64,000 bases of DNA from positions 48,608,001 through 48,672,000 of the forward strand of contig OZ024745.1 of assembly GCA_964016885.1 (NCBI GenBank), written 5' to 3'. Of the stretch, positions 11,601 to 49,126 are shown piece after piece (position 1 is the first letter of the stretch; the number at the start of each line of letters is the position of its first letter). A program made the position numbers and the translations under genes. This DNA comes from Eledone cirrhosa. Lineage: Eukaryota. A model generated the notes under the pieces. The model searched no databases. It was not told the DNA's origin and worked only from the letters and a program-made list of their open reading frames with translations.

Positions 11601-12337
11601 GAGGAGGAGTAAGAGGGAGGGGGAGTATCATAAGTTGTTGAATCAAGACTATGCCTGGGATACAGACTGTTTTCCTGTTGCAAATAAAGGACTTTCTGCT
11701 AGTCTACTTTTGTTTAATTCTTTAAAGCAATTATTTACTAGTTTTAAATTATTAGTTATTAGGAACCTTTATGTCTTGATAAATATGGCTTTTATATTAG
11801 AATTTGTTGAAATACTATAAAGAAATATACAGGTACTCTTTGAAGTACAAATTATATGAGTTCTGACCACTTGCAGTTATGACTATAACTCTGTGCAAGC
11901 ATGTACACTTCCCATTGCATCCATCATGCTTTAGCAATTAAATTCAAGTACTTTTTTCATCATCCTGATTTTTCTGCAGTGTAACATGTTCTATAGACTT
12001 TGCCCTATCACTGCTCCCACTCTCTCTCATATGATTTCTATCTATCTTTCCACTATAAGAAAATGTTTAATGATAACACTATCCTATGCCTTTCTTCTTT
12101 TGCACTCTCACTAACCTATAACATGTAGGATAAAAACATTAAAGTAATTAAAAGAAACAAGCTAGTTTATTTTATATCTACCTTGACCTGCAAGACCTAC
12201 AAACATGTTCAATCTAAATTGCCTCCAAAAATGTTTGTCAACACTTGTTATAAAACACTATCTGTAAAATGAACTAATGTGTTTTATATTATCATAAATT
12301 GTTTTGTTAAGGTCCAACCCATGCAAATATGTAAAAA

Positions 12338-21300: not shown

Positions 21301-22881
21301 GTTCATATTAGTAATGCTTATAGTTCATGGTAGTAATGCTTATAGTTCATATTAGTAATGCTTTTAGTTCATATTAGTAATGCTTTTAGTTCATATTATA
21401 ATGCTTATAGTTCATATTAGTAATGCTTATAGTTCATGGTAGTAATGCTTATAGTTCATATTAGTAATGCTTATAGTTCATGGTAGTAATGCTTTTAGTT
21501 CATATTAGTAATGCTTTAGTTCATATTAGTAATGCTTATAGTTCATGGTAGTAATGCTTATAGTTCATGGTAGTAATGCTTATAGTTCATGGTAGTAATG
21601 CTTATAGTTCATATTAGTAATGCTTATAGTTCATATTAGTAATGCTTATAGTTCATATTAGTAATGCTTATAGTTCATATTAGTAATGCTTATAGTTCAT
21701 ATTAGTAATGCTTATAGTTCATATTAGTAATGCTTTTAGTTCATATTAGTAATGCTTATAGTTCATATTAGTAATGCTTATAGTTCATGGTATTAATGCT
21801 TTTAGTTCATATTAGTAATGCTTATAGTTCATATTATAATGCTTATAGTTCATATTAGTAATGCTTATAGTTCATGGTAGTAATGCTTATAGTTCATGGT
21901 AGTAATGCTTATAGTTCATATTAGTAATGCTTATAGTTAATATTAGTAATGCTTATAGTTCATATTAGTAATGCTTATAGTTCATGGTAGTAATGCTTAT
22001 AGTTCATATTAGTAATGCTTATAGTTCATATTAGTAATGCTTATAGTTCATATTAGTAATGCTTTTAGTTCATATTAGTAATGCTTTTAGTTCATATTAG
22101 TAATGCTTATAGTTCATATTAGTAATGCTTTTAGTTCATATTAGTAATGCTTATAGTTCATATTAGTAATGCTTATAGTTCATATTAGTAATGCTTATAG
22201 TTCATGATAGTAATGCTTATAGTTCATATTAGTAATGCTTATAGTTCATGGTAGTAATGCTTATAGTTCATATTAGTAATGCTTATAGTTCATATTAGTA
22301 ATGCTTTTAGTTCATATTAGTAATGCTTATAGTTCATATTAGTAATGCTTATAGTTCATATTAGTAATGCTTATAGTTCATGGTAGTAATGCTTATAGTT
22401 CATATTAGTAATGCTTTTAGTTCATGGTAGTAATGCTTTTAGTTCATATTAGTAATGCTTATAGTTCATGATAGTAATGCTTATAGTTCATGGTAGTAAT
22501 GCTTATAGTTCATATTAGTAATGCTTTTAGTTCATATTAGTAATGCTTATAGTTCATATTAGTAATGCTTATAGTTCATGGTAGTAATGCTTATAGTTCA
22601 TGATAGTAATGCTTATAGTTCATGGTAGTAATGCTTATAGTTCATGGTAGTAATGCTTATAGTTCATATTAGTAATGCTTTTAGTTCATGGTAGTAATGC
22701 TTTTAGTTCATATTAGTAATGCTTATATTTCATATTAGTAATGCTTATAGTTCATGGTAGTAATGCTTATAGTTCATATTAGTAATGCTTATAGTTCATA
22801 TTAGTAATGCTTTTAGTTCATGGTAGTAATGCTTATAGTTCATATTAGTAATGCTTTTAGTTCATGATAGTAATGCTTATA
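12338..22881. repeat. 22-bp minisatellite, ~10.5 kb, roughly 470 copies, interrupted by a SINE near its left edge
   Basis: Unit AGTAATGCTT(A/T)TAGTTCAT(ATT/GGT), with rare variants and a few 21-bp units. Confidence 0.98.
12408..12595 (-). mobile_element. tRNA-derived SINE, full length, inserted in the minisatellite
   Basis: Minus strand: A-box-like TGGCAGTATCGG, B-box-like GAGTTCAAATCCC, central GCCTTTCATCCTTACGGGGTCGATAAAATAAAGTACC (resembles the Meta/MESC SINE domain, from memory). Flanked by a duplication of TAGTTCATATTAGTAAT. Confidence 0.9.
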
Positions 22882-24334: not shown

Positions 24335-24604
24335 ATCATCATCATCATCATCGTCATTGTTTTTATGTCTGCTTGTTTATACTTGCATGGGTTAGATGAG
24401 TCCTCTCTAGTAGTAGATCTCTCCATTTGTTTTTTTTCTTTTGTCATCTGCCTTGAGAGACACCGTTTCTTAAGATAAGCTTTCACCATCTCATCTCTTA
24501 TTTTTCTTAGTCTTCCTCTTTCATGACCTCCTTCCACTATGACTTCTTTACTTAATGGTCATTCTCTTTACATGTCCATACCGGCATAACCTCCTCTCCT
24601 TCTT
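24335..24604 (-). mobile_element. Degraded RTE 3' fragment
   Basis: Minus strand ERRLCRYGHVKRM...GRLRK plus AACCCATGCAAG...(ATG)n tail. Confidence 0.7.
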
Positions 24605-24614
24605 GCTAGATTTA

Positions 24615-25088
24615 ATTTTCGAGGTCATAAAGCATGGCTTGGACGCTGTGAGCTTCCCTTCCCAGCTCGAGCCAGTGGGGCTGGACCGAAGGGACGGCAA
24701 AAGGCCAGATAGCATGACCATCTTCCCGTTCTGCGGTGGCAAACCCCTCGTCTGGGATGCTACTTGCACCGACACTTTCTGCAGCCGCAACCTGGTGCAG
24801 TCTGCCACTAACCCAGGTTCTGCTGCACGTCGGGCTGAGGAGGCCAAACTCCTCAAATACCGTTCACTCTCCAACAGGTTTGCAGTTGTACCCCTGGCAG
24901 TGGAGACTTCTGGTGTCCTTGGCCCCAGGGTTACCTCCTTACTCACCACCATAGGTGCTGAGCTGGCCAGCCCAGGTGTGAATCTCGCAAGTTGGAGTGG
25001 CTTTTCCAGCGCGTCTCCCTTGCCGTCCTCCATGGGAACGCCTTCTCCATCCTGTCCGCCAGGGCTGTTGGGGAGCCCCATCACATAA
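24615..25088 (+). mobile_element. CRE-like non-LTR retrotransposon fragment (restriction-like endonuclease domain)
   Basis: LEPVGLDRRDGKRPDSMTIFPFCGGKPLVWDATCTDT...AARRAEEAKLLKY...VPLAVETSGVLG: PD..D/K-KY RLE signature typical of CRE-clade elements. Confidence 0.8.
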
Positions 25089-25414
25089 CATTCCATATTT
25101 AGGTATCCAGATCAATGAATTTTATCATATATTTCGGCTGTTATACAAGCCCATGGTTAAAAACATTCCAGTCATGGCCATGCCATCAGATTTATTTCTT
25201 GACAACATTGTCCGATGTGTTTCTTTTTATTGTGATTTTAGAGAAATTTGGCTGCTATTTCATTCATCTAGTGCCCAGTTATTTTTTTTGGGGGGGGGGG
25301 GGGGGGGGGCAGACAATTATTTCTAGTCAGTTTTTCTTGTTACTTTAAATAACAAAATTTGATATTTATTTCTAACATTAAATACACATTCACCATCACC
25401 ACCAACAGTTTTGT

Positions 25415-25815
25415 TAGACATGACCTGGTGGTCTTTGACAAGGGAAAAGATCTTGCTTGATTATAGATGTAGCTTGTCTCTTTGACACAAGAGTGCAAGA
25501 AATGAAGGAGAAAATTAACCAATACCAGGATCTAAAGTGGGAACTGAAAAGGATTTGGGACTGTTATGAGATCAAGGTTGTCCCTATTGTCAGAGGAGCA
25601 CTAGTTACTGTCTCGAGGAGTTCCCAAGGCTGGTTAAAGACTATCAGCCCAGCCATCTTTATTGGAACACTTCAAAAGGCATGCCTACTGGGAACAGCAA
25701 GCACCCTCCGATACGTCCCGAATGTCTGAGGCTGCGGGTAGTGGCTTGATATTCATTTCAACAAACTTTCCAGTTAAATAACATCAATGACTGAGACTCA
25801 AAGAACAATAATAAC
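25415..25815 (+). mobile_element. R4/Dong-like non-LTR retrotransposon 3' fragment (RLE)
   Basis: DLVVFDK...IIDVAC.FD...EK..QYQDLKWELKRIW...VVPIVRGAL...LQKACLLGTA..LR followed by AAT-rich tail. Confidence 0.7.
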
Positions 25816-29231: not shown

Positions 29232-29391
29232 TAGATGTAGTTCCATAACAGTTAGTTCACCATTACCGAGAACAATTGTTTCACCTCATTCGGATCATCA
29301 ATTCTTAGACCAGTCTGAGAGCTGATGATCCAAATAAGGTGAAACAGTTGTTCTCGGTAATGGTGAACTAACTTTTGTAGAACTACTTCTA
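29232..29391. repeat. Imperfect palindrome, 79-bp arms and 2-nt spacer, each arm with a hammerhead-like core (probable Penelope terminal-repeat relic)
   Basis: Symmetric about 29311/29312 with about 10 mismatches, mostly transitions; CTGATGA-TCCAAATAAGGT-GAAAC-AGTT-GTT at 29322-29352. Confidence 0.85.
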
Positions 29392-29553: not shown

Positions 29554-32015
29554 TGGGAGTTCCTAAAAAATAATTTACTAGAGGCGACGGATGAGGTCTG
29601 TGGCTGGAGTAAGACCTCAAGCAGGAGGAGAGTGACTTGGTGGTGGAACAATAAGGTAGATGAAGCAGTTAAGGCCAAGAGACAGGCATGGAAAGAATGG
29701 AAGAACGGGGGGAGCAGGGTACATTACATAGAGACCAAGAGGGAAGCTAGGCGACAAGTATACTTAGCTAGGAGGGAAGCAGAGGATAGAAAATTCAAGC
29801 ATGTTTTACAACGTGAGGACCAGAAACAGGAGGTATTCAAGATTGCAAGGCAGTGTGTCAGAGATAGTTGTGATGTCATTGGAGAGAAGTGTATCCGGAA
29901 TGATAAAGGTGAGCTTGCCCTCACAAGTGCTGAGAAGAAAGATGCATGGAAGAGTCATTATGATAGATTACTAAATGAGGAGAATGCATGGGAAGAAGAG
30001 ACCCTACCCCAAGTAGACCCTATAGAGGGACCAGCAGTACAAGTCAGCAGCAGCGTAGTAAGTAAGGCAATCAAAGATATGAAGATGGGGAAGGCAACCG
30101 GTCCATCGGGTATAGCTGCCGAGATGCTGAAGGCATCTGGGTCTGTAGGTCACACTATAACCACACGTATCGTTAACCAGGTAATACTAGAAGGGGCCAT
30201 ACCAAAAGATTGGTGCAGTAGCATCATTGTCAACTGCTACAAAGGTAAAGGCGATGCACTAGATAGAGGAAACTATAGAGGTATAAAGTTGATGGACCAG
30301 GTCATGAAAGTAACAGAAAGAGTTATAGCACAGCTGATTAGGGACCGGGTGAATATAGACGAGATGCAATTTGGGTTTGTACCAGGAAGAAGCACCACTG
30401 ATGCCCTCTTCCTTGTGAGGCAATTACAGGAAAAGTACCTAGCTAAAAGTAAGCCACTCTACTTGGCATTTGTCGACCTTGAGAAAGCCTTTGACAGAGT
30501 TCCACGTGCTGTAATCTGGTGGGCTCTTAGAAAACTAGGAGTAGATGAATGGCTTGTGAAAGCGGTACAAGCCATGTATAGGGGAGCAGTCAGCAAAGTT
30601 AGGATTAGCAATGAGTATAGCGAGGAATTTAGCGTACAGGTTGGGGTCCACCAGGGCTCTGTTCTTAGCCCTCTCCTGTTCATCATAGTCCTGCAGGCAA
30701 TAACGGAGGAGTTTAAGACCGGATGCCCATGGGAACTCCTGTATGCTGATGACCTCGCACTCATAGCTGAATCTATGGTAGAACTAGAGAATAAATTCCA
30801 AACCTGGAAGCAGGGACTAGAGAGAAAGGGTCTCAAAGTCAACATGACCAAGACTAAGGTCCTTGTAAGTAGACGAGAAAACAGAACCCAGATCCCCTCG
30901 GGGAAATGGCCTTACTCAGTATGAAGGAAAGGTGTAGGTAGGAACTCCATTCTCTGCCCCAAATGCAAACAATGGGTACACAAGAGATGTAACGGGATCT
31001 CAGGAAGCTTAATTAAGAATGTAGGATTCACATGCAGCAGCTGTGCGGAAACAGCAATCAGCAAACAGCCACAGGAAACAAGTACCACCAATCTCTGGGA
31101 GGGCCCTGTAGAAACAGTAGACAGCTTCTGCTACCTAGGTGACCGAATTAGCAACGGAGGTGGGTGTTCAGAAAGTACAATAACTAGGGTAAGAACGGGA
31201 TGGAAGAAGTTTAGGGAACTACTACCACTGCTAGCTGCAAAAGGCTTCTCCCTCAGAATGAAAGGCAGACTGTATGATGCGTGTATCCGAACAGCGATGT
31301 TGCATGGTAGTGAGACCTGGGCGCTGAAGGTGGAAGACTTACGTAGATTAGAGAGAAACGAAGCCTGCATGCTCTGATGGATGTGTAACAGTAATATACG
31401 TGAACGACAAAGCATAAATGAATTGAGAGAGAGACTGAGCACAAGAGGAATCAAATGCTGTGTGCAGGAGAGGCGGTTGCGCTGGTATGGACATGTGATG
31501 CGTATGAAGGATGACAGCTGCATAAAAAGGTGCAGAGCACTAGAAGTTGATGGAAACCGCGGAGTGGGGAGACCCAAGATGACCTGGGATGAGGTGATAA
31601 AAGCCGACCTTACCCAATTACACCTCTCAAAGACAATGACACACGACCGTGACTTCTGGCGTCACGCAGTAATACAGGGTACCCGACCTCCCATGGGTAC
31701 ATGCTGAAGCATATAAACAATATGCCCCCACACCCCCCACCGCAAGGTGGTCGTGGAGGTGCCACGGCAAAAAAGCACCCAGCCCACACTGTAAAGTGGA
31801 CGTGTAGGCGCCACGAAAAAGCACCCAGCACTCACTGTAAATGAGGTTGGTGTTAGGAAGGGCATCCAGCTGTAGAAATCAAGCCAGATCAGTTCCTGTA
31901 TGAGCAAGGCATGGTCAGCCGACCAGACACTGCCCACAACAGGACAACCCGTCTAACCCATGCTAGCGTGGAAGAACGGACGTAAAACGGTGATGATGAT
32001 GATGATGATGATGAT
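29554..32015 (+). mobile_element. RTE-clade LINE, 5'-truncated, RT pseudogene with 3' UTR and (GAT)n tail
   Basis: One frame from 29554 to 31707 with two stops (30922-24, 31375-77). Motifs NYRGIKL, QFGF..GRSTTDA, FVDLEKAFDRV, GVHQGSVLSPLLF, LYADDL, FCYLG, LHGSETW, RRLRWYGHV, GRPKMTW. No endonuclease domain present. Confidence 0.95.
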
Positions 32016-33720
32016 AGTGGCAACATGACTGTGTGATTCAGGAAATTGCTTTGCAGTCATGAGGTTCTAGATTAATTTCCAATGCATGGCATGTTAGACA
32101 TCTTTTACTATAACTGCAAGTTAAATAATACCTTGAAAGTAGAATTTGGTAGACAGAGACAGTTCAGAAATCCATTGTGTGTATGTGTGTGTGTATTTAT
32201 ATATAATTATCACTGCTCTGCCATCTTTGCAATATATTTATTCTTCTTCCTACTTCACCCAATCCTATCCATTCCTACTCCCACCCATAGGGTAGAGAGG
32301 ACTCGTCAGTCAAATCAATGACCAGCAACCGTCCTAGTGTGGTTTGTATTAGGAAGAGACCTTAGTCACAGAAACTATGGTTTAACACCACCAACTGGCT
32401 CTTTGGCACCTTTAGTAGAATTCACTCTGTTGCAAGCATTCAGATCAGGTCTTCAGTTTGAGAATATCCCCTTTCCTCTTCTACAAGTCACAGAAGCCCT
32501 GAAAAAGGTCCTGACAACTATTGTTACTTCCCTGACTAAACAATAATTTTTTTCTTCCTTGTTTTATAAATTCACTTCAAAACAATTGGTTTGGCAGCAG
32601 TATCAGCTAAATTAGTGATTATCTCTTCTTTTAATTCTTTAACCTGTTTATAACCATATTTAAAAGGAAATCCATTTTGAAAATAATTAAGAATTTGGAG
32701 GAATTCAGTGATCTAGCTAATATTTTTATATTATGAAGTTGCTGTTTGTACCATGAAATATTCTTACATAAAATGAAACTTTATTGGTTGATCTAGTTAT
32801 ATGATCAACAGAACAGCCAGCTCATGAAACTAGTATACGAGTAGCTGACCATTTCACAGATGTGTGTACCTTTAATGTAATTTTCCAAGGGAGATTCAGT
32901 ATGACACAGTCTGTGACAATGTCGGCCCTTTTAATTACAGGTACAATTCATCCAATGGGCTTCCAAACAGGTTCAGCCTACTCAATTTCACTCACACAAT
33001 TTGGGTCGAGCTGAGGCTATGGTAAATGACACTCACCCAAGATGCTATGCAGTAGGATTGAACCTGGGACCCATTGATTGTGAAGCAAACTTCTTAAAAA
33101 TTCACTCATGCTGGGAGGTTTTGATATAAATATGAACACTATAAAATGGGCAGGTTTTGTATAACAGAGCCAGAGGTGGTTTCGAGCAGGCTGGTATCAA
33201 AAAGTTAAATGCACTTATCCTAGTTTTAAATTTACTATAAACCTACACAAAAACAGCCTTCAAAGTTTTCAGATAATCTTTAATTATGGAGAGGAGTTTT
33301 CTCTTCTCTGTTCAGTTGTAGATCTTGGATAGCTCAAAGAAAGTTTTAACCCACATCCCAAACAGTTTAACTTCAGATCTTCTTATTATATAATCATGCT
33401 ACTTGAACTTCAAAGATAGTCAAAATTAAGTTTGTGAGTTAGAATTATCACTTTATATCTATTTTTCTATGGGGTAGGGGGGAGTTGAGCCACTAAGAGT
33501 ACAAAACTACCTCCTAGACAGGTCACCAGTTCACCCTAGAACTCACCCTTAGCTGCTGCCAGTACTAATTTTAAGCTGAATGAACTGGAGCAACATGAAA
33601 TGAAGTGCTTTATTGAAGGACGTAACACATTACACACCGCCTTATGATCATGAGACAACATCAAAAACCACAAGGTCACGTGCTGTCACAAGCTAGAAAT
33701 GTATTATTTTCAACTTTTAA

Positions 33721-33960: not shown

Positions 33961-34001
33961 TTAACATTCATAACACTTACCTTTGTATTGTTTCGTTGAA
34001 G

Positions 34002-34124
34002 GTGGTCTTTGTGATGACTGGAGACTGTGGTGATGTCAGTCATCAAGGCTACAGAGTATATGAAGAAATTGCCTCAACTAGCTCAGGCCAAGTATTTTTG
34101 CTAAAGAAATCCCAAGTAAACCAG
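34002..34124 (+). CDS. HMCN1: Hemicentin internal exon (C-terminal part of VWA domain), 123 bp, phase 0-0
   Basis: Acceptor ttgtttcgttgaAG, donor GTatgt. Translates [41 protein letters not shown], closely matching the hemicentin VWA segment VVFVLTGDC...[16 protein letters not shown]. Symbol denotes family (HMCN1/2 co-ortholog). Confidence 0.93.
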
Positions 34125-34503
34125 GTATGTAAATAAATTTTAATTTTGGTTCTAAATATTTCAATGTACTGAGTATTGCATGTCATTCACTCTATCTTTC
34201 TTTCTCCTCCACACACATACACTGTCTCTCTCTTTCACATACACACATATACACACACCATCTCTCTTTCATACACATACTTACTCCCTCACACACACAC
34301 TTCGTCTTTCTCTCTCTCTCTCTCTCTCACATACTCTCCCTCTTTTCTATTTGACTGTATGTCTCTCTTCCCATCCTCAGTGCAGGAGAACAATCCTTCT
34401 TTTACTTAGTAAAAAAACAAAAATAAAATAAATAATAAAATATTAGAACTGGGAAAACATTACTTTTAATTTTGCTAGCAATAAACAAATAAAATACCAA
34501 TAT

Positions 34504-35260
34504 TGGTTTCTAATTTAGGCACAAGGTCAGCAATTATATCAGCCCCAGTACTGGAAAGGAAAAGTTGTCTTAAGTAGGATTTGGACTCAGAACATAAATT
34601 ACTAGAACAAATACTGTATAGCATTTGTCTGGAGCTCTAATAATTGTTTCTACTTTTGGCACAAGGCCAGCAATTATCCCAGTGTATTACTGGTACTAAT
34701 GCTGCCAATCCAACAGCCTAATCATAAAAATAGTAATAATAATAATAATAACAACAACAACAACAACAATGGTTTCTGATTTAGGCACAAGGCCAGCATT
34801 TTGGGGGCAGGGGAAAGTCGATTAAATCGACCCCACTACATTACTAATACTTTATTTTATTGACCTCATTAAGATGAAAGGCAAAGCTAACCTCAACAAG
34901 ATTTGAACTCAACATAAAAAGATGTAATTATATATGCCATAAAGCATGTTGTTCAACGCTCTACTAATACAACAATAATGGCTTAAGATTTAGGCACAAA
35001 GACAACAATTTAAGAGAAGAGGAAAGTTGATTACATCAACTTCAGTAATTGTCTGGAACTTTATTTTATCAACTCCAGAAAAGTAAAAGGCAAAGTTGAC
35101 ATCTGCAGGATTTGAACAGAAAGCACAAAGAAACAGTACAAATGTTGTAAAGCATTGTCTTTGAGGTCCTAACAATTCTGCCAAATTCGTTACCCTTAAT
35201 AATTATTTCTAACATTGATACAAGGCCAGTCATTTGGGGGAGCGGAGGTGAGGGCAATTA
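34504..35260 (-). mobile_element. Cluster of diverged or partial SINE copies, all minus strand
   Basis: Repeated TTTAGGCACAAGGCCAGCA...GATGAAAGGCAAAG...GATTTGAACTC blocks. Confidence 0.75.
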
Positions 35261-35487
35261 TAATGACCTAGTGTTTTACTGGTTTCAGTCATTACACTGT
35301 AACCATGCTGGGGTGGTCTCTTGATTTAGTCTATCATATTAACCCCAATAATTATTTTATTGATCCCTTTTTTTTTGCTATGGTACATAAACACAGACAC
35401 AAATGATAATGTGTGTACATGCATACACACACATATATATACATATTTATATAGAAGTCGGCTATATATATATATACACACACACAT

Positions 35488-35689
35488 ATCATCATCATCA
35501 TCATCAGCATCACCGTTTTACATCCGTTCTTCCACGCTAGCATGGGTTAGATGGGTTGTCCTGTTGTAGGCAGTGTCCGGTCGGCTGACCTTGTCTTGCT
35601 TATACGGGAACTGATTCTGGCTTGATTTCTACAGCTGGATGCCCTTCCAGCTGTAGAAATCAAGCCAGAATCAGTTCCCGTATGAGCAA
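35488..35689 (-). mobile_element. RTE 3'-end fragment ending in a fold-back palindrome (35596-35689; 44-bp arms, 6-nt loop)
   Basis: 35488-35648 is the reverse complement of ~31856-32015; the sequence then inverts, with one mismatch between arms. Confidence 0.93.
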
Positions 35690-35778
35690 CATATATACAC
35701 ATATATACATATATATATATACACACACATATATATATACACATATATATATATACACACACATATATATAAATATAT

Positions 35779-35843
<65 letters not shown>

Positions 35844-37883
35844 TATATATATACATAGAGTCGACTTCTTCAGTTTCTCTACCAAATTTCTCTTATATGG
35901 ATTTGGTCAACCTGAAGTTATAGCAAAAGACACTTGCTCAAGATGCTGCACAGCAAAACTGAACCCAGAACTATATGCGGATGAAACAAACTGCTTAACC
36001 ACATGGCCATGCCTGTACCTTTGTTAAAATAATAATGATAATGATTATAAAAATAATCATTTTACGTCTACTTTCCATGCTGGCAAGCATTCGTTGGGTT
36101 GTCACAGTCGAAAATTAGACTGATCGAGGAACCATATTCTTCTTATATATTCCATATTTGGCATGGTTTGTACGAATGGATACTCTTCCTAATGCCAACC
36201 ACTTTACTGAGTGTAGTGAATGTTTTAATCATGGCACCACTACTACTATTTTACAGAGTGTACTGGGTACATTTTTCATAGGACCAGCACTACAACTTTA
36301 CTGATTGTACTGGGTGTATATGATACCAGCACTAACTAATTTACAGAGTTTTCCTAGGGGTATTTTATCATGGTGACAACACTAGAGAAGTTGTCATATT
36401 TTCAGCCAAACTGAAGTCCTCTCTACTTTATATTGTCTCTGTTTTATTGCCAATCACCTTATTTATTTATATTAAATTAATTCTTCTGTATGCCTTGTTT
36501 TGGTCCCCAAGATATTAGAACCGAAAAAACAGAAGGAAATTTATGCTAAAGGATGTATGTAGTTGATGGATGAGAATGTTGTATGAGGTAGACCGGTAGG
36601 TTGTACATATCTTTCCAAACCATAACAAAAGGGGAAGAAGTATAAAAAACAAATATTCAAGCATCTTTGCAATAGTTTTAAAGATTCTTAAGTGGGTTGT
36701 TTGACATATTTTGTTTTGGTATATTTTGATGTTTTGTTTTTTTATCACATTTCATTGATATATATCTGACTGAAGTATATGACACAACAAGCTTTTCCAT
36801 CCAATCCGATAAAGAATTTATCTTGATTTAGCTTAATTTAGTCAACTTGCTATGCATTCTATTTCCGCTCATTCTCACTTCCACACATGTACTTATACAT
36901 ATGTGTGTACTTAAACACACAGTTACACAAATACTCATTCTCTTTCAAATATGTACACCTCCCACACATTCTCTCTTTCTCTTTTTCACACATGCTCATA
37001 TAGATGCACATATATGTATGCAAGCACACACACACAAATACATATTTACCTACTCATATATTCTCTCTCTTTCAAATACATACACCTCCTACACATTCTC
37101 TCATTCAAAAACATACATACACACACCCTCTCTCACTATCGCTTTCAAACACATACACCATCTCAATCTCTCTCTTTCAAACACATACACATACACTATC
37201 TCACACACACTCTCCCTCTCTCTCAAATGCACACAATCTATCTCTCTCAAATACGTACACACATATCCATATACTCACTCTCTCTTTCCCAAACATGTAC
37301 ACACACACTCTCCTCCCCACTCTCTTTCAATCAAATAAATTGTTTAAAGAAAACTAATGTCTAAAAATATAAAAGTTATCTACCTCAACCCCGACCATAA
37401 ACATAATGTCTAGACATTAAATACACAAGTTTCTTCACTACTTATAAAAACAATGTTACCAAGCAAAATGCTGAGCATCCAGAAGAGCATTTCGTGTTAT
37501 AACCCAGCTAGATGGAAAGGAAGGGCCAGGTGTCCTGCGCCACAATTTTAAAGGGAGTCTACCCACCTCAAATTCTAGTTCTTTTATTCTGTTCTGTTAC
37601 TTGTACACTCTAAAGTCTGTCGGAAACCCTGAGACTCATCAGGCCAGTGCATATCTTGGTTTCCTTGGCGTGAAGTGATTGAGAGTACAAGATGTCCCCT
37701 GGACAGGATGCCAGTCCATGGCAGGGTTAAAATCCCAGGTACTGCTGGTACTCATTTTAGCTGAATATACTGGAGCAACATGAAAGCTGCTCAAGAATAT
37801 TGTAAAAAAAACCTGGCTTTTTTACATCAGGCACAAGGACAAATTTATACATATATATGTATAGTAATAATAATAATAATAAT

Positions 37884-38097
37884 CCCTGGCTTAGCAGTGC
37901 TACCGAGGAGCTTTGCCAGTTCGGGATAAACTCTACAGGAATGGAAGTGCCGTCAGCCGGGCATGTCCAAGATGTGCGCAGGACGACGAAACCGTCCTGC
38001 ATGCACTCGTCCAGTGTCCGAGCATTGCTGACTTGTGGGTTTATGTCGAACACCTGCTGTCGCATGTAGAACGGATCCGGCTATCAGCTGAAGACTA
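37884..38097 (+). mobile_element. Tx1/L1-clade LINE fragment (C-terminal CCHC, zf-RVT)
   Basis: LPVRDKLYR...CPRCAQDDETVLHALVQCPSIADLW; inserted after (AAT)n. Confidence 0.72.
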
Positions 38098-38175
38098 AAT
38101 CCAAAGAGGGGTTGATAAGGATAAATATATATCAAATATATAAGAACCATAGAGCAAATATTTAATAAATACATA

Positions 38176-38206
<31 letters not shown>

Positions 38207-38406
38207 TTGTTATTTGTTACTAATATAGTTAGACATCTCAATGAAAAGATAAAATAAAACATTTAAACATATTTAACTTAAGTCAAAATCTCGTTTGGTG
38301 GGATAAAAGCTAGATAGCCTAAAATAAGTCAGTTTCAGTTATTTAATGTCCTCAACTACAGTTATTCTTTGGAAGTGGAAAATACATTATTATAACTATA
38401 TATATT

Positions 38407-38678
38407 CGTTTCTGATTTAGGCACAAGGACAAACATTTTTGGGGAAAGAAAGGTTGATTAAATCAATCCCGTGGCTGTATCAATAGTGTCAGACAAAATG
38501 CTTTGCAGCATAGAGTTATGTCACTTCATGTTCTAATTCCAAATCCTGCTGAAGTTAGCTTTGCCTTTCATCCTTATGGGATCGATAAAATATAGTACCA
38601 GTAATGCACTGGTATCGATTTAATCAACTTTCCCCTCCCCTAAATTTTTGGCTTTGAGCTTAAATCATAAACCATTAT
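38407..38678. mobile_element. Diverged head-to-head SINE pair (short minus-strand 3' end plus longer plus-strand copy)
   Basis: GTTTCTGATTTAGGCACAAGG...GTTGATTAAATC on the left is an imperfect reverse complement of GATTTAATCAAC...CTTAAATCATAAAC on the right. Confidence 0.65.
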
Positions 38679-39559
38679 ATTTATCATCAACAGTAAAATC
38701 TTTAACCGGTTTTCTACGTTTCTTTGCTATTCATAATTTCTTACTGTAAATAAACATAATGTAATCTTTGACTTAATAGTAGAACACTATGGTCGTCACA
38801 TGTCTTGGTATACACATTTTTTGATGGAATATTATTCCTAAACATTTAATCATAGTTTATATTTGTTAATTAGTCATTTCTCCTTGTTTATTCTTTGTTG
38901 TTCTGTTATTCATCTGCAAATTGATATATTAGAAAAATTCTTAAATTGGGAAAATATCTCCCGGAACATTTTTCTACATTTTTCCACTCAGTGGAATCTT
39001 TCTTATATTTATGTCTTTGATTTGTTGCCAAAAATCTAAAGCAAAATAGATTAAATTACCTTCACCGAAAGACTAGAAACTGCGACCTGTTGCCGCGGAC
39101 CCAATGCACAAAACACATAGAAGAAACAATTCCTTAGATAACAAAGTTCTTGTCATTGTTGGTGGCTCACCCTACCGAGGCATCAGGTAATGCTGTGTGT
39201 ATGTGTGGGTGTGGGGGGTGCTTGGTTGTTTCGGCACCTTAGCCTCACTATCATTCGGTTTTACTGAGGTATCAGAGGATGCTATCACCTGCAGTAACGC
39301 TGCTAGTGTGTTGGTTTGCCTCAAAAAGTATTAGAGGGAGGCTCCAGCACTCCTTGTGGTATGTGCCCGATTGACACAGTTAGTGTTGACATAATATTTT
39401 CTTTCGTTTTGATTCTATGTTTTCATGTGAAATATTTATGTCATTAAGTAATAGAGATATATGAGTGTGTAGGTGTTGAATTTTGACAGCTATGTCATTT
39501 TGTGTTTGTAATTTCAAGCTATCTATAGTGTCAGCATATTTGTTTGGGAAAAAATCTGA

Positions 39560-40160
39560 ACTTTTCTAAAGAGAAAAACACAAAAATTTCCTAAAATATG
39601 TACCAAACTTGATTCGGGGTGAGCTACAATTATTGTTTCATTCGATGTGTTTAGTTTATATACTATTATGCCACACTATTGTGGAATAGATGTTAGTTTG
39701 AATTACTGAACCATATAGGAACAAATTTTATTATCAAATGTCTTACGTTTATTCTACAAAAAAATTGTTTTATGTTCAATGAAGTGACAGTAGCAATAAT
39801 ATATGTAAATCCAGTTATGGGTTACCACGGAAAGAAAACTTATGAAGAGACACTAAAGGTATTTTATTCATACTTCAAAGAAAATTGGAAAAGGTTTCTT
39901 GGTGGCTGTTTTATCTTATGGAACAAAATAGAAGATAAACTAGAAGAATTGAAATATATTATAAACATCATAGACACCAATATTCAATTCCCAATGAAAT
40001 TTAACAAGAAACAACTCCCCTTTTTAGATATCTTGATAAAAATAATAGCTGGGTGGTTTGAAACAGATATCTATTATAAACTCACAGACTAAAAATAATA
40101 CTTACTATTCACATCCTGTCATCCAAACCATACAAGAACACATATTCCTTTTACTTTAAC
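39560..40160 (+). pseudogene. Penelope-like element RT remnant
   Basis: IVSFDVFSLYTIMPH, WKRFLGGCFILW (decayed R(Y/F).DD), NIQF....QLPFLDILI, FETDIYYK.TD...YLLFTSCHP: PLE RT/thumb signatures with stops and frameshifts. Confidence 0.8.
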
Positions 40161-40996
40161 GAAGCTGACCCATGCCAGACATCACGTCAATTATCTGAAG
40201 TCTTGGAACATCAAAAACAACCATACTCAATCACTTGGATATAGTAAGGAAGGTTTCAAAGCTGGGCCAATGGGTGCCCCACAACCTGACAGACTAAAAT
40301 TGTGAATGTTAGGTTGCAATTAGGACTTCTCTGCTCTCCTACCATTGCAATGGTTATTTTCCATTGTCACTGGTGATGAAAATGGTGTCTCTACATTAAT
40401 GTCAATTGCAAGCAATGATGGCTTGATAAAGAGAGTGCACCACAACAGCCATCCTTGCAACGCCCTACTGAGTGTCTGGTAGGACTGGAAAGGTGTCGTC
40501 TCCTATGAGCTTCTCCCACTGTACACCACCATAACTTCTGACATCTATTGCCAACAACTTGACAGATTAGGGGTGAAAATCACACAGGTGCACTCAAACC
40601 ATGGTCCAGTTTGATTTTTTCATGATAACGCTTGGCTGCATACATCAAGGATGACTTGTGAGAAGCTGCTGGTGCTAGGTTGGGAGGTCCTGTGCCACCC
40701 GCCATATTCACCTGACCATGCACCTACAAACTATCAACTTTTTCTCTCAATGAACAATTCAATGCAGTCAAATACCTTCACCAATGATGACCAGCTAAAT
40801 CAATGGCTGACAGAGTTCTTTGTATTGAAGCCAGGAGAATTCTGCATGGATGGAATCATGAGCCTTCTTAAACGATGGCAGACGGTAATCACAAATGAAG
40901 GCGATTATTTTGACTTGTAAAATTCTTCGAATCTTAAAAAACACTAAAGTCAATAAAAATGTGAATGACGGTGAGAACTTTCTGTCCAACCTAATA
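40161..40996 (+). pseudogene. Mariner transposase pseudogene with right TIR
   Basis: SKLGQWVPHNL, IVTGDE, HDNA..H, LGWEVLCHPPYSPDHAPTNYQLF; right end AACTTTCTGTCCAACCTAATA followed by TA. Left TIR not seen. Confidence 0.9.
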
Positions 40997-41000
40997 TAAC

Positions 41001-41042
<42 letters not shown>

Positions 41043-42927
41043 TAAGGCGGGTAAAATTCCCGAGATCCATGGACGAGTTCTCTCCAGCGGTCTCTGTCCC
41101 TCATTATCACTGCCATGTCCTGCATCTCCAACAGACCAGTGTCTGTCCTTAGGGCATCAGCACTAGAAGAGGAAGACCAAGGTTAACGTATGTTGATATA
41201 TATATATATATATATATATATGAGTGTGTGTGTGTTTCAAATTATTTTCTCTTTTTTTTTTTAATTGCTTCATCTGAAATCCTGAAATCATATACATAAT
41301 TTGTGCTACCTCATAAAAAAAAACATTACACACTAGCAGCTGTTAGCCAAACTGCATGGAATTCTGAGTGGCATGATTGATGCCAATTGTAATGGCAAGG
41401 AAAAAGGAAGTATTTATATCAAATGTGTAGAAATGCCTTCACAGCTGATTTTAAATCAATGTTGTTCATTTAATAAAAAGCAAAAAATAAAAAAAGTCTT
41501 ATAGAGGAAAGATGCTAGACATGTAAAAGGTAATCCATTTAACTTCTAATGTTACATTTGAGATATACATATATTATTTATATTCTCAGTTAGAAAAAAA
41601 CATTTTGACACATCATATCTTATTTTCCCCGCCTAAAACCAGCCTGATTCTATGATGACAAAACTGCTTATTTTAATGTATTTATATTTGTCTAAAATCT
41701 TTCCAACATAATTTTAGGTAAAATCTTTGTAACACTATATTCTAAATACATTATGTTCTTAATAATGAGAAAGTTTGTGTTTCTAAATCCCTTTTATTTA
41801 AAAAAAATCATAAGCTGTGTCTTTCATTAGAAATATGGTAATGAAATAGTTTAATATGATGTATTCCATAGAAGAAACCATCTGCAATATCCAAAAGCTA
41901 ATTCTTATTTAAATATATGTAATTGAAATTATTTCTCACACTTTGTTTAATTAAATACAAATAAAATTCTTAAGAAATTATTAACTACATTTTTTATCAC
42001 TCCTTTAGGGGGGAGGAGGAGGGGGGGGGGGGGCTTTCATTTCCTAACCCTGATTGCATGGCCTATATTCGTTAGTAGTAGATCATAAATACAGCCTAGA
42101 ATCAAATGTGGTGTCTGAATGACAAATAAATATAAAAATTTCCAGTACACAGCTGATGAGAAGTCTGTTTTTAGAGTAGTATAAGGATATCAAAAACATA
42201 AGTTTATTATACATATGTAAACATTTTTAGTCCTGCTGTTAAGATTATTTTAGGTTAAAACATAAGTTAATGGGAGCATTAATTAGGAAGTAGACTATCA
42301 TGATTTTCATTCTGGTTACTTCATTAGCTGTGTGGTATAATTTATAATTATTATTGATTAGTGTTTATCAAAAATTAAGTGTAACACCAGAACCAATCAA
42401 GTTAGGATCCAAACTCTCAAACTGTAATGAACTTTATTGCAAAGAGGGATGCAATAATACAAAATATTGAACCCTTTGATAACCTGCCCAAAATTGTCTC
42501 TAAAACCACTTATTTTAAAATATCCATATTTAAACTAAAATTTCCCATCATAATTTTATCTCAGAATATTTTGTTATGCTCTAACAACAGAGTTAGACAT
42601 TCTTCTGTTTTATTATTTTAAAAATTAATTAGAAAATATAAGCAGTATTTTGCAAGAGAAATAGTATAATTTTTTGAGGGAAGGGTAGGACTTATTTGGA
42701 AAAAGACATTATAATGTAGTATATTAATTAATTCTGTTCAGTTTTCATAAAAAATAGTTTAGAGGTAGATCTGTTGCCAATTTTCGGTTTCAAATTGGTT
42801 CTTAAGTTTAATATATAGTTTATTTTGAAAATCTGAGAAGCTGATCCATTCATAAAAAGACAAATAACTAATGCAAGCATGGAAAATAGATGTTAAATGG
42901 TAATCATTATGATGATTGTATCATGAT

Positions 42928-43128
42928 GAGGGTGGTGGATTGGCAGTATCATTTGAGCTTCAGACACCATGATTTGCAGCATATAGTTATGGCCCATTAT
43001 GTTCCAAGTTCAAACCCTGCCAAGGTTAGCTTTGCCTTTCATCGTTACAGGGTCAATAAAATAAAGTACTGGTAGCACTGGGGTCGGTTTAATCAACTTT
43101 CCTCTCCCCACTATTTGTTGGCTTTGTG
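42928..43128 (+). mobile_element. Diverged tRNA-derived SINE
   Basis: GGTGGATTGGCAGTATC head, AAGTTCAAACCC B-box-like motif, GCCTTTCATC...AATAAAATAAAGTAC core. Confidence 0.75.
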
Positions 43129-43453
43129 ATGATTGTATCAGTAAAAGCTGTTCTTATGAAGCAATGACAACCCTCAGGTATAAACAGATTCATAAAATAT
43201 ATTTTTATGCTATAGAGACTGAAAGTTACAAAAATATGTTTATAAATTACATGATATTAGTCAAAAAAACTTTATCTAATCATATTTATTTAAGAGGCTT
43301 GAATTTATTTATTCATATGTTTTTTGTAAAATTCATTGGCAATTTATAGACAAAATGGATGTTATATTAAATGTAATATTTTAGTCATAAATTTACTTCA
43401 CTGGCTATGGTACTGCCTGTGGCATATAAAACACACAATCACACACACACACA

Positions 43454-43493
<40 letters not shown>

Positions 43494-43677
43494 GCATGAC
43501 TATATGTATGTTTATTATGCATAAACATATTGTATATGGGTCCATACATTCATTAATTCTGAACCACGCCTTGATAGTGTTATTGCTAATATATATATAT
43601 CATCATCATCATCTAATGTCTGGGAAAACAAGCGTTAAACAATTATAATGATGTGCGTGTGTGCATGTGTGTGTGTG

Positions 43678-43709
<32 letters not shown>

Positions 43710-44074
43710 TTGGATGGTTTAACTAATGGGTAGATCTTATCATTCCAATTAGCAGACCGTGATGTAATAAGCAAAAACACTCAACTTTATGCATATCATC
43801 CACCATAGATGTAGTATCTCGTGGATGGCACCTAAATGGAGTTAAATACTTCAATGAAAAAAGGTTGGATTCTAATATATTCCTTTAATATTGCATCAAT
43901 ACACAATATGTATTTCTGTAACTGGCTGAAGTCATCAGATCAGGATGCAAGACAATCAGCAACAGCATCAGGTGTAATGAACACAAAAGATTTTTAAAGA
44001 TTTAAATGATTTAGTTCAGTAATCCCTACTGGGTTATGGCAGCTGGACCAACGATGCTATTGTCACAGTGAAGG

Positions 44075-44410
44075 TGCATAGCTTAGAGATTAGAGCATTG
44101 GGCTTGCAATTATGAGGTTGTGAGTTAGATTCTCAGACAGAGTGATGCATTGTGTCCTTGAGCAAGACACTCTATATATCATGTGAATCCCAGTTGACTC
44201 AGCTGTAGAAATGAGTTGTGACATCACTGGTGCCAAGCTGTATCAGCCTTAGCCTTTCCCTTAGACAACATTGGTGGCATGGAGAGGGGAGACGGTATGC
44301 ATGGGTGACTGCTGGTCTTCCACAAACAACCTTGCCCAGACTTGTGCCTTGAAGAACTTTGTAGGTGCAAATCCCATGGTCATTCATAACTGAAGAGGGT
44401 CTTTACCCAT
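44075..44410 (+). mobile_element. Second tRNA-derived SINE family (related pieces at ~430-565, 2700-2800, 26755-26812, 27455-27700)
   Basis: Degenerate tRNA head followed by TGTGTCCTTGAGCAAGACACT, a motif typical of CORE/V-type SINE bodies. Confidence 0.6.
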
Positions 44411-45095
44411 TACCTTTTATGTATGTATGTATATGTGTGTGTGTGTATATGTATGTATGTATGTATATGTGTGTGTGCATATGTGAGATCAGTGGCCCCA
44501 CTTCTGTACAAATTTAGTCAGTGAAAACCTGTCCAACACTTGTTAGCAGGGAAAATAGACGTTAAATGATGATGATATATATATACACACACACACACTA
44601 CACACACTATGTTTATTGCCCTGTATAACATTGTCTTCCCTACAGGCATAAAATATATTTTAGACATTTTTTCTTGCAAACAGAAATCATGTTGTTTTGA
44701 AGATCACATGATCTCATTAACTTCTGTTTTAACACAAAAGAAACTTCACAGCATGACTAATTTTTCATACTTGGAATGGATGACTTTTTTTTTTCATTCT
44801 TCAATGCAGTGTGTTGTAATGCAGAATTAAGTTCTCTGCTGGAACATAGTGTTATGAACAATGATTAGATTGAATGTATTATAGAGATAGCTAAACCTTC
44901 ATCTTCCCAACTCCATATATTCTGAAAACATTTGGCCACAAACAGTGAACACCTGCAGCTCTTTCACTGAACTTACTTAACAGAAGGATGTTATAGTATA
45001 AAACCTTACATGGGTACGTGTGAAGACCAAAACATTAGCATTACTTGTTAACAACACAGTTGGCCATAATTGCTGAATAGGCAATGTTAAGTGTG

Positions 45096-45435
45096 ACAGG
45101 AAAGATCAAATAATAATTGTTTCTACTTTTGGCACAAGGCCAGCAATTACCCAGTGTATTACTGGTACTTTATTTTATCGACCCCTGTAAGGATGAAAGG
45201 CAAAGTTAACCTCGGCGGGATTTGAACTCAGAATGGCAAGGGCTGTAACTCTATGCGTCAAAGCATGGCATCGATGCATAGAGTTACGACCCTTGCCATT
45301 CTGAGTTCAAATCCCGCCGAGGTTAACTTTGCCTTTCATCCTTACGGGGTCGATAAAATAAAGTACCAGTAATACACTGGGTAATTGCTGGCCTTGTGCC
45401 AAAAGTAGAAACAATTATTATTTGATCTTTCCTGT
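45096..45435. repeat. Long palindrome: SINE fold-back with ~163-bp arms and 13-nt loop
   Basis: 45096-45259 is the reverse complement of 45273-45435 with about 4 differences. Arms include 15 bp of non-SINE flank (ACAGGAAAGATCAAA). Confidence 0.96.
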
Positions 45436-46012
45436 TAATGTACAGAAACATTATGTTAACCCTTTTGATAACAAAACAGCTAAAATTCACCTCTGGTTCT
45501 ATGAAACAAAACTTGCCATTTTAAAGGGTTCCTATTTAACCCTTTTTATACCAATCTAGCCAAAATTGGCTCTGGTTCTACAAAACAAAGCCAACTGTTT
45601 TAAAGGGTTCCTATATAAATAAACGTTTTCCAACATAATTTTATATAAACCATTTGTTAAATTATCATCTTAGTAATAAAATAATTAATAATTTTAGTAA
45701 ATCACTTGAAATTCTTCATTAACCCTTTTGATATTAACCCAGTAAAATTGGTTCTGGTTCTATGAAACAAAACCAACCATTTTAAAGGGTTCTTATTTAA
45801 ATTAAAATCTTCCCATGAGGAAGTAAGAATGAGATATAGAAGAAAAAAATCAGCCTCAGCACTGGACTGGTACTTTTTTTTATCAACCTGAAAAGTTGAC
45901 CTCAATAGGATTTAAATTCAGAAAGCAGATAAAACTTGAATAAATACCACAAAGCATTCTATCCAACATGCTAGCAACTTTACCAATTCACTGTTTGTAG
46001 TGAAATTACAGG

Positions 46013-46366
46013 TACTCTCAGGTCTTGAATAATCAGCCCCTCCCTCTCCCCACTCACTTATGAATTTTTCAGATGTTTTCCAAATCCCCCGCTTTTATTC
46101 CACTGTCAACCCACTTATTAAATTTTGCTAATCTATCTCTGGTGAAATTTTATTGTATGTGATTCATATTGATACAGCAGCTGGAGAATCTAATAATTTA
46201 TTTTATTATACATTAAAAAAACATTATATATGACAAAAAAAGAACATTGCTAGAAATCCCATATTTACTACAAACATACACTATACAATTATCCCCCCAG
46301 GGCTTATAAGAATTTAAGCAAATATTCACTCCACCCCACCTCCCTATTACTGGGGACCTGAAAGTA
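46013..46366. mobile_element. TA-flanked MITE; a ~57-bp internally deleted relative lies at 62773-62829
   Basis: TACTCTCAGGTCTTGAATAA ... TATTACTGGGGACCTGAAAGTA imperfect TIRs in both copies. Confidence 0.65.
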
Positions 46367-46856
46367 TGTTATCAGAGATGATAGGCTTTATATGCAGCAG
46401 ATACACAGGAGTAATAAGTATTAAGAGTACATGTGAAGAAATGGAATAAAATGTAGCATGAAAGACTCTACTGGTAAAAGTATATGGAAGATAATATAAA
46501 GAAATACAGGATACCCAAGGTGGATAAAAACCTGTGGAAGGTGTAGATCCAGGAAGATATGGGTAGCGGTAATGAAGACTGACTTAATGAAGTTGAACCT
46601 TACAACAAAGGTGGCAAAAAACCATGATAATTGGGAATATGTGATACAGGAGATGACTCACACATCAGTACAAATAAGGCACATTATATGCTCCTAATTA
46701 ATCCCCATTTCTTCCTTTAGTATTCTCTCTATACTATTCCCACTTCACCATCTCAGCTACTAACCTCTATTGTATTCACTGCCCTACTACTATGTAATGA
46801 GGTGTAGTATTTGGTCTATATCTGATCCCTCCATTCATTATTACTATTCTTATCAT

Positions 46857-46990
46857 CCCTTTACGATCTGAGTTCAAATCCCGCCGAGGTTGACTTTGCC
46901 TTTCATCCTTACGGGGTCGATAAAATAAAGTACCAGTAATGCACTGGGTAATTGCTGGCCTTGTGCCTAAAGTAGAAACAATTATTATTA
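46857..46990 (+). mobile_element. 5'-truncated SINE with TSD
   Basis: Family 3' two-thirds; TATTCTTATCATC duplicated on both flanks. Confidence 0.85.
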
Positions 46991-47499
46991 TTCTTATCAT
47001 CACTATTTCTGTACTTCTTCCAACCATTACTTATCTATTTTTTTACCTGTCACTCACCTTCATCATGTTGCCACCAGGGAGGAAAGGGGCATGATAAAAA
47101 AGAGAAAGCAGGCTACAATGAGAAAGATATATACATATATATATCATCATCATCATCATCGTTTAACGTCTATCTTCCACGCTAGCATGGGTTCAGATGG
47201 GAATTGCCCCACTTGAGGCAAGATTGGTCGTCTGGCTCGTATAGGACTGTCTGCCCTTCCTAACATCAACCATGTTTACAGTGTGGACTGGGAGGTTTTT
47301 ACCGTGTTACCTACACGGCCACATTACAGCGTGAACTGTGTGTTTTTTTTGTCGTGACACCTACACGACCTCTTTTATTTAGGACTGGATTTTGTGATAC
47401 CAACATAACTTTACAGAGAAGGGGGGGGGGTTGATGGGGGTGGAGGTGGAGTAAGGGTAGTGGGATGGGGGTGTATATTTGGTATATATGGTATGTATG

Positions 47500-47541
<42 letters not shown>

Positions 47542-47999
47542 TACAAAGTAAAAGAATGAAAGAGAGAAAGTGTTTTATTATTGTTTTCAAGCAATACAAG
47601 TGGGAAAACATTATCTTCAGTTGAATATGTCAAACATAGCAATAGAGAAGTGATGTTAGACAATGTTTTTTTTTTATGACCTTGTTTTTTATTTGCATTC
47701 ATGTTTATTTTAGAATGTAATTTGTTTTAGATAAATACTGCTTTTATATATTCTTATCTTTGTCATAATCATTGTCATCTTCTTCTGTGGATTGATAGAA
47801 TCATTAGAGTGTTGGGAAAAATACCTTATGGTATTTAGTTATGGCTTTTTACATTCAGAGTTCAAATCATGTTGAGGTCAACTTTACCTTTCATATTTCC
47901 AGGGTCGTTAAAATAAAGTACCAGTAGAGTCAATGTAGTTGACTTATCCCTCCTTCCCAAATGGAAGGCCTTGTGCCTAGATTAGATACCATTATTGTG

Positions 48000-48192
48000 A
48001 GGGTGGTGAATTGGCAGTATCAGTAGAGGGTTGGACGCCATGCCTTTCTAGCATAGTTACGTCCCTTTACGGTTTGAGTTCAAATCCTGTCGAGGTTAAC
48101 TTTGCCTTTCATCCTTACGGGGTCGATAAAATAAAGTACCAGTAATGTACTGGGTAATTGCTGGCCTTGTGCCAAAAGTAGAAACAATTATT
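48000..48192 (+). mobile_element. tRNA-derived SINE, inserted at the tail of an older copy (~47785-47995)
   Basis: Full family sequence; ATTATTGTGA on both sides. Confidence 0.88.
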
Positions 48193-48581
48193 GTGATACC
48201 ACATTATTTGTTGTATAAGACACTTTTTTTACTCCCAAATTTCAAGTCAAATTTTGCTAGCATCCTATACATCAAATAAAAATCTCAAATACTACGAGAA
48301 CTATTTTCCCCTTAACGTTTTCTTCCAAAATAAGAGTGTGTGCTTATGAGAATTAGTTCTTGATGGTAAATATAGATTACCAGACACAATTTTATCATCA
48401 TTTAACAACTGGTTTCCCAGCCAGCAAGGATTGAATCAGTATTCAAATAGAGCTACTGATCTTTCAGATAGTCCGAGAGCCTGTATCTTGCTTACTTATG
48501 TTTCTGCGCTGTACTGGGTGCTCGGGTGTGCCAGTGGCCTGCATCTCACTTACAAAACATGACAACAATAATGATAATAAT

Positions 48582-48769
48582 GTGTTTCTACTTTTGGCAC
48601 AAGGCCAGCAATTACCCAGTGTATTACTGGTACTTTATTTTATCGACCCCATAAGGATGAAAGGCAAACTTAACCTCGACGGGATTTGAACTCAGAATGG
48701 CAAGGGCTGTAACTCTATGCGTCAAAGCATGGCATCCGCCCTCTACCGATACTGCCAATCCACCGCCCT
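48582..48769 (-). mobile_element. tRNA-derived SINE
   Basis: Reverse complement of the family sequence, ending 185 bp upstream of a hemicentin exon. Confidence 0.88.
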
Positions 48770-48954
48770 TTGTGATGATAATGATGATTATAAGAACAAC
48801 AACAATAATGGTGATAAGAAACGACAATGAAGGTAACGGTGATGATGATGATCATAATCATAGTGATGATGACAATTATGATCATGATGATGATCTTGAA
48901 GATGTTAGTCTTTCTTCTTTTTTAGTCTGTACCTTACTTGCTTTTCCCCTCCAG

Positions 48955-49126
48955 GTGCTAAACTTTGTCCGTGTTGCAGTACAAAGCAGGAAAGTGAATT
49001 TGATGTCTATTGATTACCCTGAAGGGAGGACAAGTGTGTTCAAGTTGCCAATTGATCCAAGTCTAAAGTCAATTACAATTTCTGTCAGTGGAAATCAACC
49101 AAAAATTTACTTAAAAAATCCTAATG
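48955..49126 (+). CDS. HMCN1: Hemicentin internal exon, 172 bp, phase 0-1
   Basis: Polypyrimidine tract cttttcccctccAG, donor GTtagt. Translates VLNFVRVAVQSRKVNLMSIDYPEGRTSVFKLPIDPSLKSITISVSGNQPKIYLKNPN(G), matching hemicentin 'AVQ..KV.L.S.D...P.DPSLK..T.S.SG..P'. In frame with previous exon. Confidence 0.93.

Follow-up and report, generated by a model that had tools for sequence, protein, structure and literature searches.

A 94-nt hairpin at positions 35596-35689 of the window (the whole 64,000-nucleotide stretch of Eledone cirrhosa DNA analysed here) was probably formed by snap-back of the end of a first-strand LINE cDNA during insertion, and comparable fold-backs recur among the LINE and SINE copies of this genome. 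The hairpin consists of two arms of 44 bp each (35596-35639 and 35646-35689), separated by a 6-nt loop, TGCCCT (35640-35645), and differing by a single mismatch (35601 T versus 35684 G), as the initial annotation had described. Folded as DNA, it reached -57.6 kcal/mol (z -13.5), a value equalled by none of 200 shuffled sequences.

The tail-bearing arm belongs to a 5'-truncated LINE 3' fragment (3' UTR and tail, 35487-35648) on the minus strand, the plus strand reading as first-strand cDNA. The tail of the element, recognised from its sequence at 35490-35512 on the minus strand, is a (GAT)n repeat, that is (CAT)n on the plus strand. A longer copy on the plus strand (29554-32016), 5'-truncated and interrupted by stop codons, served as reference: it comprises a reverse transcriptase (RVT_1, E 3.9e-33), a PHD-like finger (PHD, E 5.8e-06), a 3' UTR and a tail, and its end (31856-32016) displayed 93.8% identity with the fragment over 162 bp. 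A reverse transcriptase-coding body, a tandem-repeat tail and varying 5' truncation identify the element as a non-LTR retrotransposon. By resemblance, it may be a member of the RTE clade; a cluster search for a clade name returned only RVT_1 clusters. The repeats of the window presumably resemble those of octopuses. A short element was also observed (L004-L033 and the window) that carries the central 3'-UTR block of the LINE followed by another, shorter 3' end, and in the same loci nearly all copies of the LINE 3' end and of this block-sharing element were found in (TA)n runs.

Ordinary copies of the LINE read TAACACCAAC after GGATGCCCTTCC, unlike the hairpin locus. Because they diverge after this point, the LINE fragment was truncated there and the TCC at 35646-35648 is a 3-nt overlap: it represents the last templated bases on the plus strand and pairs with GGA at 35637-35639. 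On the basis of this continuation in ordinary copies, TCC could be assigned to the templated strand as well as to the copied arm, in line with the claim made at first reading. At the mismatch, base C was present in nearly all family contigs of the read data; T at 35601 is therefore private to the tail-bearing arm (the putative copy-back template, plus strand), and since the copied-back arm, an inverted duplication on the plus strand (35646-35689), keeps the family base, the C>T change affected the template arm and postdates copying. Two features expected of a snap-back were present: reverse-complemented element sequence is joined to the 5' truncation point of the tail-bearing insert, and the loop runs on from the first-strand, tail-bearing arm of the plus strand.

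The following course of events is suggested. Reverse transcription from the tail would have halted after about 160 nt, as the truncation indicates, and the terminal TCC would have paired with the GGA six bases back, in line with the geometry; an enzyme would be needed to hold this pairing. A polymerase would then have copied 41 nt back along the cDNA, giving the product now present, before the end presumably became attached to the upstream strand of the target and the opposite strand was completed. One C>T change, apparent against the family reads, would later have occurred in the template arm. Parts of the earlier interpretation need amendment. The truncated end alone, as naked DNA, does not adopt the built-in GGA/TCC mini-hairpin that had been postulated, and the term 'second-strand synthesis' is inappropriate, the copied strand being a continuation of the first strand and not a productive second strand.

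An anchored search, in which an anchor had to be followed by its own reverse complement within 60 nt, was performed in both orientations. Head-to-head versus tail-to-tail pairs numbered 13:5 and 40:10 for two anchors in the LINE 3' end, which are also present in short elements of the genome, and 235:6 for the tRNA-type SINE of a second palindrome located at 45 kb in the window. The pooled ratio, 288 to 21, is partly confounded by 5' truncation being commoner than 3' truncation. Two further pairs came from a fourth anchor, placed where the LINE ORF ends and counted in head-to-head orientation only. In total, 105 loci were inspected and classified by eye: 53 LINE-end loci, both ORF-end loci and the first 50 of the 235 SINE loci (all on contigs C1 and C2). 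Terminal fold-backs accounted for 55 of them, the remaining 50 not being terminal, and the loop ran on from the tail-bearing strand in 50 of these 55, lying on the wrong arm in the other five. The LINE-end loci were distributed among 23 terminal fold-backs with a continuing loop, one terminal with a flipped loop, nine internal round trips and 20 two-copy, complex or ambiguous arrangements; the two ORF-end loci were both terminal with a continuing loop, and the SINE loci comprised 25 terminal continuing, four terminal flipped and 21 whole-length, two-copy or complex cases. The bias in loop orientation was thus marked both for LINE-end terminal cases (25/26, p 8e-7) and for SINE terminal cases (25/29, p 1e-4), whereas internal round-trip inversions were unbiased (four continuing versus five flipped).

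This polarity bears directly on an unlikely alternative, namely a later DNA accident in an already inserted copy, where a break or stalled fork would leave a resected 3' end that self-anneals and is filled in by a host polymerase, the upstream part of the element being lost on rejoining. Such an accident should affect both sides equally, in contrast with the raw 288:21 and with the terminal cases for the two controlled LINE anchors, 24 of which were head-side versus one to four tail-side. Among the 15 tail-to-tail LINE-end loci, one clear terminal fold-back (L050) and up to three more possible ones were found, and these tail-side cases show that a DNA-level route also exists. The unbiased internal inversions (9/53) point in the same direction as L050, long local palindromes are common (five with arms of at least 25 bp in 80 kb), small inverted duplications with microhomology form a common class of human structural variants in the accessible part of one report (PMC12350158), and self-annealing is described at L1-induced breaks in that of another (bioRxiv 2024.12.14.628481). 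A DNA accident, however, would leave no target-site duplication around the whole structure, and such duplications were present in 9 of 22 SINE cases.

These 9 duplications, of at least 10 nt, were found around the SINE and its fold-back among 22 tail-marked loci, compared with 0.6% of mismatched flank pairs, and eight of them are not simple repeats. As the duplication encloses element and fold-back together, the fold-backs concerned date to insertion. For the LINE, 7 of 21 loci displayed a duplication versus 12% in the control, a weak result as all were simple repeats. At the hairpin itself, the tail-side (35462-35489) and head-side (35690-35860) flanks are both (TA)/(CA) microsatellites; they share an 11-nt low-complexity match, possibly a slipped target-site duplication on the tail side, which is uninformative in such a context.

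Junctions were scored for 21 of 23 LINE loci (leaving out L062, with a loop of 3, and L076, for which no matching subfamily was available) and for 21 of 25 SINE loci (leaving out L111, L116, L141 and L159). Loops measured 6-16 nt in the LINE set and 8-18 nt in 19 of the 21 SINE cases. Microhomology of at least 2 nt was observed in 14/21 LINE junctions (null expectation 19.5%, reached in 0/2000 simulations) and in 10/21 SINE junctions (null 12.9%, 0/2000 simulations). At the level of at least 3 nt, the LINE count was 7/21 (null 7.5%, 1/2000 simulations) and the SINE count, 2/21, was not significant, 385 of 2000 simulations being as high. A general trinucleotide rule was consequently rejected, enrichment of 3-nt microhomology being restricted to the LINE set. 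A loop on the tail strand, its short length, pairing over 1-3 nt and an enclosing duplication are all predicted by intramolecular priming from a cDNA end, so that a snap-back is favoured. Taken with the polarity, these observations support the proposal of the initial annotation that self-primed fold-back is a recurring feature of retrotransposition in this genome.

The loop also separates a snap-back from twin priming with overlap, in which a second cDNA would be primed off the upstream target strand and then joined to the first. This possibility appears quite improbable for the hairpin: it predicts a flipped, longer spacer and an inverted segment usually extending upstream, whereas the inverted arm here lies wholly within the tail-bearing fragment, ending 6 nt plus the overlap short, and the flank does not match the RNA at the position where a second cDNA would have been primed. 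L1 5' inversions do include overlapping cDNAs, with a median of 12 bp, in the accessible text of PMC12016303, and the five terminal cases with a flipped loop match the geometry of twin priming. According to the corresponding text of PMC4245944, one assay yielded such inversions almost exclusively with human L1.

Independent insertion of two copies by chance, head to head, is still less probable. The family is very abundant and pairs of this kind occur among the 20 of 53 LINE-end loci left unclassed; here the second arm has no tail, gives way to flank after 44 bp and overlaps the first by 3 nt. For the SINE, chance would yield 156 anchor pairs before any demand for truncation, and about 4 of 60 ordinary copies (~7%) end in the searched window.

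An artefact of assembly or of chimeric reads seems the least credible origin. The unique flanks of the hairpin were found in read runs X1-X3, which represent one sample, possibly the source of the assembly. Read contigs fall into 31-mers within the repeat, and none of the contigs and reads listed spans the hairpin junction, the flanks of which are simple repeats; RAD-seq runs X21 and X22 yielded other copies of the family. Against such an origin, the arms are not identical, the copied arm having the family base at their single difference, and across 35 loci arm differences amounted to 25/872 and 35/1113 bases, that is about 3%. Chimeras would furthermore not produce the polarity, the loop rule or the target-site duplications. 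In libraries of 60-94 copies, the arms were much closer to each other than to median copies, yet not closer than to the best other copy, which makes the comparison with the best copy non-discriminating.

The turn itself was less particular than had been supposed. The 27-mer that adjoins it and ends there is present in 49,685 exact copies in the 3.0-Gb genome, and only two long fold-backs turn at GGA/TCC; a special built-in turn, as proposed, is not supported. The exact hairpin junction occurs three times genome-wide, two of these occurrences being long fold-backs; the second (L043, on contig C19) has other flanks and other variants and represents an independent event. The GGA/TCC turn is a mild hot spot and no frequent built-in feature. 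Another turn, TAA...TTA, was used at 7 of 40 loci. An amplified subfamily already bearing the hairpin was considered and rejected, given that turns, arm lengths and flanks vary among loci and that the exact junction was found three times only. At L001 (1500-1540), the same GGA/TCC turn is followed by 5 nt resembling a short copy-back, after which upstream element sequence resumes; alternatively, these 5 nt could reflect a deletion combined with one extra base. Internal inversions in L034, L035 and L038 mark a further hot spot: they share a turn next to a CAGCTG palindrome, the loop measures 4 nt, microhomology is absent, and the loop is flipped in two of the three. L042 (1400-1620) contains an element fragment that lacks a tail, with an untemplated loop of 3 nt and flanking direct repeats of about 25 nt, within other coding-like sequence.

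Three long local palindromes were listed in the window, the hairpin among them. The second fold-back (45096-45435, no strand assigned) is a tRNA-type SINE mirrored over its full length plus 16 nt past its tail, with a loop that continues the left arm. The 3-nt microhomology attributed to this palindrome stands only if the locus is allowed to depart from ordinary copies by a 1-nt deletion and a C>T substitution. An older palindrome at 29232-29391 (arms of 69 bp with 7 mismatches, 22-nt loop) lies upstream of the long LINE copy, beginning beside a TA run. Elsewhere in the genome, L102 (4391-4531) displayed an internal round-trip inversion (arms of 59 bp) within part of the coding region of another LINE. 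Near-perfect palindromes with arms of 152 and 184 bp lie between TA runs in L102 (5689-6008, including a tRNA-like box) and L164 (2673-3050), respectively; both are possibly MITE-like or whole-element fold-backs.

With regard to the polymerase responsible, we slightly prefer the reverse transcriptase of the element to a repair polymerase of the host, for instance Pol theta. Long arms, some of which run through the tail into target DNA (L064 and the 45-kb case), together with hop-back cases, favour a processive, displacing reverse transcriptase. L1 ORF2p extends short hairpins, with longer duplexes than those considered here, in the accessible part of PMC10830420. A host polymerase would account equally well for microhomology of 1-3 nt, and minimal pairing suits Pol theta as far as the available text of PMC4912351 describes it. 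In the snap-back reaction of the latter enzyme, templated in cis, a single-stranded 3' end is likewise self-extended from minimal pairing; the insertions of that assay had a median of 7 bp, versus arms of 14-160 bp here in a search that detects long arms only.

The closest known parallel is provided by snap-back 5' junctions, named and described as a low-frequency class among insertions made with R2 protein (PRINT) in the accessible portions of PMC11371274 and PMC11331408. In the R2 system, the 5' junction forms only after the 3' end of the cDNA has started synthesis on the cDNA itself, and the same order of events is probable here. The R2 events are engineered insertions in cultured human cells, whereas natural fixed copies of another LINE type and of a SINE are involved here, and loop and microhomology rules could be measured in these natural copies. 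The mechanism class is already known from R2; a literature search outside most subscription journals retrieved no report of folded-back cDNA in natural copies of RTE-type LINEs or of SINEs. As far as the accessible text of PMC12016303 and PMC4245944 goes, L1 twin priming similarly leaves inverted element sequence at the 5' end within a target-site duplication, and differs in that the inverted part is largely drawn from upstream, with limited overlap or a small gap, where the present fold-backs purely duplicate sequence from downstream. Inverted duplications at L1 insertion sites, a rare class (0.3% of insertions) in the available text of PMC10191854 and bioRxiv 2024.12.14.628481, share small-hairpin self-annealing, microhomology of about 2 bp and a retrotransposition break; they copy target DNA, whereas the cDNA of the element itself is duplicated here. 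Completion of LINE 5' ends is still poorly resolved, and this genome offers a natural record of snap-back junctions whose simple rules (6-18 nt loop, 1-3 nt pairing, recurrent turns, enclosing duplication) can be matched to in vitro assays of reverse transcriptase or Pol theta.

The frequency of these events could be approximated from the 175,352 SINE anchors and the proportion of ordinary copies truncated in the searched window. About 118 terminal SINE fold-backs (235 x 25/50) would correspond to roughly 1% of such truncations, and the same estimate for the first LINE anchor gave about 0.15%; both are rough lower bounds because short copy-backs miss the anchor. For one SINE anchor by itself, the estimate for the genome is thus a hundred such hairpins or more.

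The hairpin appears to lie inside an intron of a predicted hemicentin-like gene, judging by exon models derived from sequence. The upstream exon (34002-34124, plus strand) has AG/GT ends and a VWA_4 match below the cut-off (E 0.0011); the next predicted exon (48955-49126, plus strand), in frame and with AG/GT ends, matched GBD_Hemicentin (E 4.9e-10). The intervening predicted intron (34125-48954) contains both the hairpin and the 45-kb palindrome, in agreement with their earlier placement in the same intron. A PDB search with the upstream exon returned no match, nor did Pfam for the 13 of 93 other candidate exon ORFs that were run. On the predicted pre-mRNA strand, the 94 nt, about the size of a microRNA precursor, would form a fully paired stem with a G-U pair at the mismatch (-84.3 kcal/mol). 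An Rfam search over 34000-37500 gave 23 matches, all below the gathering score, with no known microRNA family reached, and inverted copies of the same repeats are already abundant in the window. Intronic inverted element sequence can yield hairpin RNA, as in LINE-2-type microRNAs according to the accessible text of PMC6433296; compared with the transposon-derived microRNA hairpins of that source, the present stem is fully paired over 44 bp. The hairpin is most likely a neutral by-product rather than a functional RNA gene. It is a speculative and rather doubtful prospect that the LINE machinery habitually snaps back at about 0.1-1% of truncated insertions, seeding perfect hairpins of 15-160 bp in numbers between hundreds and thousands; a subset of them, the intronic one at 35596-35689 included, would be processed to small RNAs against more than 50,000 parent copies or be substrates of RNA editing. 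Taken by itself, the locus is a neutral curiosity; it would gain in importance if such hairpins were processed into small RNAs or edited.

Other repeats were noted in the window. The open frames 24543-25111, 25439-25726 and 40615-40917 presumably correspond to fragments of other transposons, Pfam giving no match for those that were run. Finally, a 10-kb stretch (12000-22000) is GC-poor (0.26-0.29), shows a pronounced skew of both GC and AT, and is probably a satellite or minisatellite.
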